From the IMG/VR virus record IMGVR_UViG_3300009085_000025, positions 17,232 to 81,231 of that record: a stretch of DNA of 64,000 nt; one strand, 5' to 3'. A program made the translations under genes and the position numbers. Each line of letters opens with the position of its first letter. Within the stretch, counting starts at the first letter, position 1. Source of the DNA: a virus. Lineage: Duplodnaviria > Caudoviricetes. Shown one piece after another: positions 56,063-56,480 of this stretch. The notes under the pieces are model-generated. The model was not told the origin of the DNA. It saw only the letters and a list, made by a program, of their open reading frames with translations, and made no database searches.

Positions 56063-56186
56063 GTCTAACGGTTTGCGTTACCCGCGTGGGGCTGTTCAGC
56101 CAACAAAGCCAGAAACACATCACCAGACATTTGAAACCAATTTTCGACGCCGCCGCCAGCGGCGTCCACTGCATGCTGTGTTCGAC
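56063..56186 (-). repeat. integron attC-like recombination site (124 bp)
   Basis: R'' GTCGAAC, ACAGCATGCAGTGGACGC left arm, GGTAACGCAAACC right arm, R' GTTAGAC (GTTRRRY); about 56% GC by hand count. Confidence 0.7.
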
Positions 56187-56367
56187 GGCATACTGCGCGA
56201 GCAAACTTCACGGCAGATTCAAAATCTGAGAAAGAAACATCAACAACGGGACTCGCATTGTCAAACTCATCAGGCGTGGTTATTTGGCACACAACGCTCT
56301 GCCGAGTACACCAAATCGTTATGCTCCAGCCTTCATTTCTGCGTTTGTCTAGGATGCTTTTTCTCAT
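56065..56367 (-). CDS. cassette ORF, reads through attC
   Basis: 100 aa; last ~40 aa encoded by attC; stop is the TAG of GTTAG. Confidence 0.5.
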   Translation of the reverse strand: MRKSILDKRRNEGWSITIWCTRQSVVCQITTPDEFDNASPVVDVSFSDFESAVKFARAVCRRTQHAVDAAGGGVENWFQMSGDVFLALLAEQPHAGNANR

Positions 56368-56404
56368 GGTATCAACTCAATAAATTCTTTCGGATGCCGC
56401 CGAA
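56069..56404 (-). mobile_element. integron gene cassette inserted in the phage genome
   Basis: 5' boundary G|TTCGGCGGCA is 10/11 complementary to TGCCGTCGAAC at R''; about 50% GC vs AT-rich flanks; one ORF. Confidence 0.7.
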
Positions 56405-56480
56405 CTATAAGATAATAGTCCCAACCTGCTTTGAAATTACGAAACCATACACCCCTCAATAGAAAAAATGTAAACATATT

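Follow-up and report, generated by a model that had tools for sequence, protein, structure and literature searches.

A single integron gene cassette with a decayed attC site in a tailed phage genome, most likely placed by an integron integrase at a G|TT site

The window (the whole stretch of 64,000 nucleotides that was analysed) is part of an 81-kb record of a tailed phage, for which CheckV gives a completeness of 58%. The record encodes a tape measure, a Dit, a minor tail protein and a baseplate protein, as well as a DNA polymerase, a primase/helicase, a methyltransferase, five tRNAs and an Acb2/Tad1-like protein. On the minus strand, at 56404..56069, an insert of 336 bp lies between two G|TT points. 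Its GC content is 49.7%, vs. 34.6% for the window and 37% and 30% for the two 1-kb flanks. A preliminary description of this DNA had proposed an insert of this length and of about 50% GC, ending in an attC site of 124 bp; these statements hold on the minus strand. The features of the locus are the following (R1 and R2 are two covariance models of the attC family, see below).

56481..57821 (-): upstream phage gene, 446 aa (phrog_2467), likely source of read-through into the cassette
56364..56477 (-): candidate for a small phage ORF, 37 aa (34 aa and another tail when the cassette is removed), crossing the left junction, without homolog support
56395..56405 (-): left junction, i.e., phage G followed by the cassette start TTCGGCGGCA, 10/11 complementary to the extended R''
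56069..56404 (-): gene cassette, starting with the TT that follows the left G (56405) and ending with the G of R', as delimited by the ends of homology in contigs L002, L003 and L004
56065..56367 (-): cassette ORF P0001, 100 aa, ATG at 56367, AlphaFold mean pLDDT 80, no Pfam or PHROG match
56063..56186 (-): attC site (top strand R''-L''...L'-R'), 124 bp, inner stem decayed, 31.8 bits with R1 and 43.1 bits with R2
56180..56186 (-): R'' box GTCGAAC, i.e., RYYYAAC with one deviation (position 4), falling on the R'' columns in the model alignment
56063..56069 (-): R' box GTTAGAC, fitting GTTRRRY and placed by the model alignment, with a putative crossover between G 56069 and T 56068
56012..56040 (-): promoter-like site TTGAAA-17-TATAAT with TG, 11/12, just downstream of the cassette, the strongest of the region
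55770..56006 (-): downstream phage gene, 78 aa, behind the promoter-like site

The stop codon of the 446-aa gene is at 56481 and a spacer of 75 nt separates it from the left junction. The cassette gene is on the same strand as its phage neighbours, and a 5-bp hairpin where the cassette starts is all that resembles a terminator upstream of it, i.e., no convincing terminator was seen there. For these two reasons it is plausible, and probable, that transcription coming from the 446-aa gene continues through the cassette ORF. An inverted repeat, CAAGTC-AGC-GACTTG (6-bp hairpin, 56036-56051, -), overlaps the -35 (TTGAAA) of the downstream promoter-like site. Two genes upstream of the cassette, a 78-aa protein (57818-58054, -) matches the Acb2/Tad1 hairpin domain PF24729 (E 6e-22), which puts the cassette in an accessory, counter-defence neighbourhood. 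As had been said of the window, no integrase is present, and this extends to the whole 81-kb record, where neither a Phage_integrase-family match nor any other tyrosine recombinase was found. No attC other than that of the insert was found in the record.

P0001 ends at a TAG inside GTTAGAC (R'), i.e., the ORF (56367..56065) reads through the attC, as the preliminary description had noticed. It has 7 homologs (55-86% identity), all of about 95 aa, the closest of which, P0002 (86% identity), is encoded on a 9.4-kb contig. A scan with the alignment of these proteins gave three metagenome contigs (L002, L003 and L004), each of which encodes a further relative (48-60% identity). On these three contigs, ends of the form ...AACGCAAACC|GTTRGG are repeated on the same strand every 0.3-1.7 kb. 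The gene of the P0001 relative has G|TT(C/A)G... before it and ...TAACGCAA(A/C)CC G|TT(A/G)GG after it. The DNA homology with the window is confined to the segment going from G|TTCGG to ...CCG|TT, and the flanks are unrelated. The unit that carries P0001 has thus fixed ends and changing neighbours and is, by definition, a mobile cassette. The GC content of the arrays is about 46-53%.

At the left junction, the G at 56405 is followed by TTCGGCGGCA, which, except at one of 11 positions, is the reverse complement of the internal TGCCGTCGAAC. The preliminary description had pointed out that the insert starts with a near-complement of its own R'' end, and this is borne out by the count (10/11 in the window). 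The complementarity is 11/11 in L002 and L003, which have the same start. A circle opened at G|TT to give the linear cassette would lead to just this. Upstream of the left-junction G, the window shows no trace (L' or spacer) of an attC before it.

Deletion in silico of 56404..56069 gives ...TTATAG|TTAGACC, with a perfect GTTRRRY in it. An exact copy of the 13-mer AACGCAAACCGTT is found at one place only in the window. It had been claimed that removal of the insert restores a GTTAGAC core in an intergenic spacer. The first part holds in silico; the second is weakened by the possible 37-aa ORF, which crosses the left junction, so that the target was maybe not purely intergenic. This ORF starts right after the 446-aa gene (ATG 56477), behind an AGAGGA box. 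What the insertion changed may be a tiny phage gene and not a pure spacer. As for an empty site in a sister phage, the exact 31- and 33-mers of the flanks are absent from IMG/VR. The neighbouring proteins did not lead to a sister phage, the relatives of the 446-aa protein being only 33-39% identical and the downstream 78-aa protein having none. The phage records searched contain no DNA match to the locus and, for the protein P0001, chance matches only (E 0.4).

Rfam contains no attC family, and its search gave chance matches only around the locus. A covariance model (R1) was built from 8 attCs of other, unrelated cassettes of L002-L004. Their common architecture is R''(YYYAAC)-3 nt-GCGT-bulge-4 bp-extra A-stem...stem-4 bp-TA-ACGC-AAACC-GTTRRRY. 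In the alignment of these 8 sites, 76% of the cells pair, vs. 28-46% after sliding one side by 1-3 columns (about 30% at every shift but one), and twelve pairs are changed on both sides. With R1, the attCs of the three homologs, which are outside the training set, score 63, 54 and 39 bits, and L004 has about 11 matches in 5.8 kb.

IMG/VR was scanned for an exact 15-mer, then with R1, leading to dozens of contigs with arrays of the attC family of the window. It must be noticed that the 15-mer alone occurs at no fewer than 120 IMG/VR loci (at least 120), a number near chance for the size of the database, and that only the R1 scan separated the real arrays. For 103 IMG/VR attCs, 87% of the cells pair, vs. 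30-39% when slid, and 454 cells show a double change, vs. 169 in shuffles; the fitting of this alignment to the model favours pairing, yet the slide control still separates clearly. In helix 3, 88% of the cells pair across the 103 sites and 11 of the 12 pairs have changes on both sides. A second model (R2), built solely from IMG/VR attC sites, gives 67, 67 and 52 bits for the attCs of the homologs. The family is present on more than 100 unrelated cassettes.

Within the 64-kb window, R1 (filters off) gives one strong full-length match, 56186..56063 (-), with 31.8 bits and E 6e-7, the next one having 14 bits. That second match (55435-55476, +) is AT-rich and was judged to be due to chance. R2 also gives one full-length match, at 56063-56186 (-), with 43.1 bits and E 1.4e-9 (next best: 16 bits). 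Both models thus fall exactly on the attC that had been proposed. The insert had been described as a bacterial integron cassette captured in a phage genome, and three sets of results agree with it: (i) the exact match of the attC models; (ii) the homologs in the cassette arrays of L002, L003 and L004, with the same G|TT boundaries; (iii) the tail and replication genes of the record.

TIGR02249 (integron integrase) has matches directly upstream of some arrays of the family, i.e., 391 bits in contig G413, 368 bits in G432 and 257 bits in G415. With reference to the curated cut-off of 265 bits, G413 and G432 pass and G415 is just below. These matches show that the arrays of the family are integron arrays. 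The three contigs (G413: L044, L140; G432: L096, L141; G415: L049, L142) are «viral» records of IMG/VR with complete integrons, one of them being classed as provirus. Their integrase lies upstream and points the same way as the cassettes, whereas the classical layout is divergent. Tyrosine recombinases beside another array (G001) were considered as IntI candidates and rejected, since they are Xer-like. As regards the donor taxon, a 14-mer of the attC was found at chance level only in 400 sampled Pseudomonadota genomes.

The record is a metagenomic assembly, so that reads from a bacterial array could have been misjoined into a phage contig. Such a chimera is hardly credible: phage sequence is found on both sides of a 336-bp insert whose ends are exactly at G|TT, the protein P0001 is on record from 2 contigs, and cassettes of the same attC family occur in other viral contigs.

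P0001 belongs to a rare family, since a profile search of 1.8 billion representatives gave only four clusters below E 1e-10; beyond these, only weak, repetitive matches were obtained. Neither Pfam nor PHROG gives a family assignment. The AlphaFold model (mean pLDDT 80) consists of a helix, three strands and four helices. A Foldseek comparison of this model with the PDB gave nothing at E <= 0.001, and a search of the ESM Atlas gave nothing above chance. A dsRBD-like fold was considered (best Z 4.5 in VIA wide); alpha-beta-beta-beta-alpha matches recur at about Z 4, this arrangement is common, and the similarity was rejected as too weak. In the genome collection the one match to P0001 (17 aa in a high-GC MAG, L001) was judged spurious.

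The very small size of the family bears on the direction of transfer. The origin of integron cassettes is unknown, and this too counts for the reverse course, in which the gene would be native to such phages, would have been recruited into arrays and would be in its ancestral state in the window. Three observations make that course very improbable: (i) in GC content, the insert exceeds its phage flanks by 15 points and agrees with the arrays; (ii) it carries a complete attC of a family that is found on more than a hundred unrelated cassettes; (iii) besides the record of the window itself, no relative of P0001 was found in the viral contigs or phage records searched.

The R'' (GTCGAAC) and R' (GTTAGAC) boxes of the window pair at 6/7 positions, and both align to the R-box columns of R1 and R2. 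The inner part of the site is different. It had been said that the L boxes pair imperfectly, which is an understatement since the conserved inner stem of the family cannot form in the window copy: in the model alignment, most of the L''/L' pairs are non-standard or deleted. Three changes are seen: (i) a synonymous C-to-T in the extended R'', which is the one mismatch there; (ii) GCAT in place of GCGT in the 4-bp helix beside R'', changing an R codon to an H codon; (iii) on the L' side, ...CCCCACGCGGGTAACGC vs. ...GCC(A/G)CTAACGC in the relatives, with a net gain of 2 nt. The latter shifts the frame past the usual TAA stop of the family (in the TAAC of L') and moves the stop into R'; the last 7 residues of P0001 are the resulting extension.

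In plain minimum free energy folds of 56055-56200 the two ends stay apart, whichever strand is used, and the comparison with the homologs explains this failure by the decay of the stem. When the AAC/GTT pairs are forced, the copies of L002 and L004 give a canonical long stem, and that of the window gives two side hairpins, at a cost of 3.4 kcal/mol. Since the L002 and L004 homologs fold canonically, the loss of the stem in the window is read as the decay of a former attC. The window attC has the lowest score among the attCs of its homologs and lacks the inner stem; this counts against an insertion by IntI, in that a former activity of the site can only be presumed. It is probably no longer a good substrate of IntI, as judged from its predicted pairing. 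The R'' mismatch, the helix change and the 2 added nt would have the consequence that the cassette is probably fixed in place.

Experiments by Loot et al. (bioRxiv 10.1101/2022.09.11.507474) have shown that IntI inserts cassettes at 5'-GWT-3' sites of genomes (attG). According to the same authors, attG cassettes may be expressed from nearby promoters, are occasionally excised and can lose their attC, and isolated cassettes (SALINs) are present in 2469 genomes (bioRxiv 10.1101/2022.09.11.507474).

We consider it likely that the insert is one single integron gene cassette (a promoterless 100-aa gene with its attC) that was put by IntI at a G|TT of the phage. Its source would be a chromosomal or mobile integron with arrays of about 46-53% GC, and it now resides in a tailed phage of about 35% GC, where it occupies the early/accessory region. 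During infection, a circular cassette would have been inserted by the integron integrase of the host, in a reaction between attC and a secondary, attG-like site, i.e., the phage G|TT within ...TATAG|TTAGAC, so that a GTTAGAC target would have been there beforehand. The products would be, on the left, the phage G joined to TTCGGCGGCA of the cassette and, on the right, the G of the cassette joined to the TTAGAC of the phage. The decay of the attC would have followed the insertion, or shortly preceded it.

The right boundary cannot be fixed from the alignment because every cassette begins with TTRRRY; it is ambiguous by up to about 16-28 nt. A larger piece of an array, or a circle of two cassettes, could thus have been taken up, with at least the right end resulting from illegitimate recombination or from a deletion at a later time. 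In that case, what follows the attC over 16-28 nt would be a remnant of the next cassette and not a GTTAGAC target that the phage already had. The first 28 nt past the crossover have 50% GC, and the 30 nt past it match the 5' end of a cassette of another contig (L055) at 21/30 positions; the latter similarity is borderline after 174 comparisons, i.e., marginal once multiple testing is considered. A comparable «1.5 cassette» state is found in L060, a viral contig of 6.9 kb and 34.5% GC, unrelated to the window: at L060:3900-4450 (-), one full cassette with an attC of the same family (75 bits, R2) is followed by a second one with only the R''-L'' half of its attC. The truncated cassette shows that trimming by means other than IntI does occur. 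Moreover, a distant relative of the window phage (G419) carries 3-4 cassettes. Against this course, the left junction is exact at G|TT and free of any attC remnant, and from about 56051 onwards the sequence, with the hairpin overlapping the -35 of the strong promoter-like site, looks like phage DNA. The sequence under debate after the attC is TTAGACCCCTTACTTG. The 12-mer of the right junction, GTTAGACCCCTT, recurs at 59895-59908 (-) inside a gene of RlaP-like nucleotidyltransferase; chance alone would give about 0.6 matches of this kind over all k-mers tested. As the second copy is inside a phage gene, the motif can be native to the phage. The uptake of a larger piece is judged unlikely.

Cassettes of the same attC family are found in several viral contigs. 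G419 (L062, with L146 and L147) has 43.6 kb and 38.8% GC and shares with the window phage a tape measure, a Dit, an RNA-polymerase-like ORF and a 102-aa ORF (28-51% amino acid identity). Its cassettes are at G419:C1:800-3900 (-), where three attCs are adjacent and a fourth one is about 2 kb away. G430 (38 kb, direct terminal repeats, 100% complete according to CheckV) has an array of 12 attCs at G430:C1:26632-31759 (+) and, on the other strand, a lone cassette (L046: 869-1120 -) with the left junction CACTAG|TTGGG. A TAG|TT left junction is common to the window, to this lone cassette and to the first cassette of L002. Three attC sites are present in G431 (150 kb).

We tentatively propose, as a possibility to be held with some doubt, that a lineage of low-GC tailed phages with a tape measure, a Dit and an unusual RNA-polymerase-like gene in common repeatedly takes up cassettes of one attC family via the IntI of the hosts, acting on phage DNA during infection, the window phage and G419 representing independent captures and such phages being both a regular shuttle and a sink. 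If this were true, cassette genes would become domesticated in phages as their attCs decay. L060, outside that lineage, would show the same uptake with its one and a half cassettes.

Insertions of cassettes at secondary sites were reportedly described by Recchia, Stokes and Hall in the 1990s, e.g., that of aadB in a RSF1010 derivative. The case of the window resembles them in that the presumed insertion is precise, at a GTT-type site outside an integron, and would be hard to reverse by excision. It differs from them in its actors, i.e., a cassette of an environmental attC family in a phage vs. class 1 resistance cassettes in plasmids.

The likeness to SALINs and attG insertions (bioRxiv 10.1101/2022.09.11.507474) is closer: (i) a lone cassette with its attC, junctions that read G|TT, and neither an integrase nor an attI in the vicinity; (ii) a placement on the same strand behind a gene of the host element, which would allow expression; (iii) a decay of the attC after insertion, as anticipated in that work. 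Nevertheless, the recipient is a phage genome and not a bacterial chromosome, the event is deduced from sequence alone, and the CRGM motif on the right-hand side of the hotspots is absent in the window (CCCC at +6 to +9).

Integron components carried by phages are known from Qi et al. 2023 (Front Microbiol, PMC9892861), who in 21 phages, virulent ones included, found integrons as well as clusters of two or more attCs, showed that phage attCs recombine with IntI1 and put forward the idea of phages moving cassettes between hosts. Their survey was based on IntegronFinder calls and on at least two predicted attCs per locus, whereas the window has a single cassette and falls outside the CALIN definition. 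Moreover, the cassette nature is established here by homologs with identical boundaries in bona fide arrays, and the left junction is precise.

The case of the window thus combines two published things, namely phage-borne attCs or cassettes and lone cassettes at GWT sites; it is no new mechanism and no new kind of element. Its interest is that the cassette nature of a phage-borne gene rests on more than an attC prediction, given the array copies with the same G|TT ends, and that the phage copy has a junction such as the integron integrase produces. It supports the published ideas of a natural insertion by IntI at non-att sites and of phage genomes as one kind of recipient. A recombination site that decays while the gene stays open could be one route by which phages gain and keep accessory genes of bacteria.

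It must also be noticed that a DNA methyltransferase-like protein of the phage (3489-4268, -) is 32-34% identical to the products of genes at L049:333-614 and L056:7908-8342. The first of these lies between two attCs and is thus a methyltransferase cassette.
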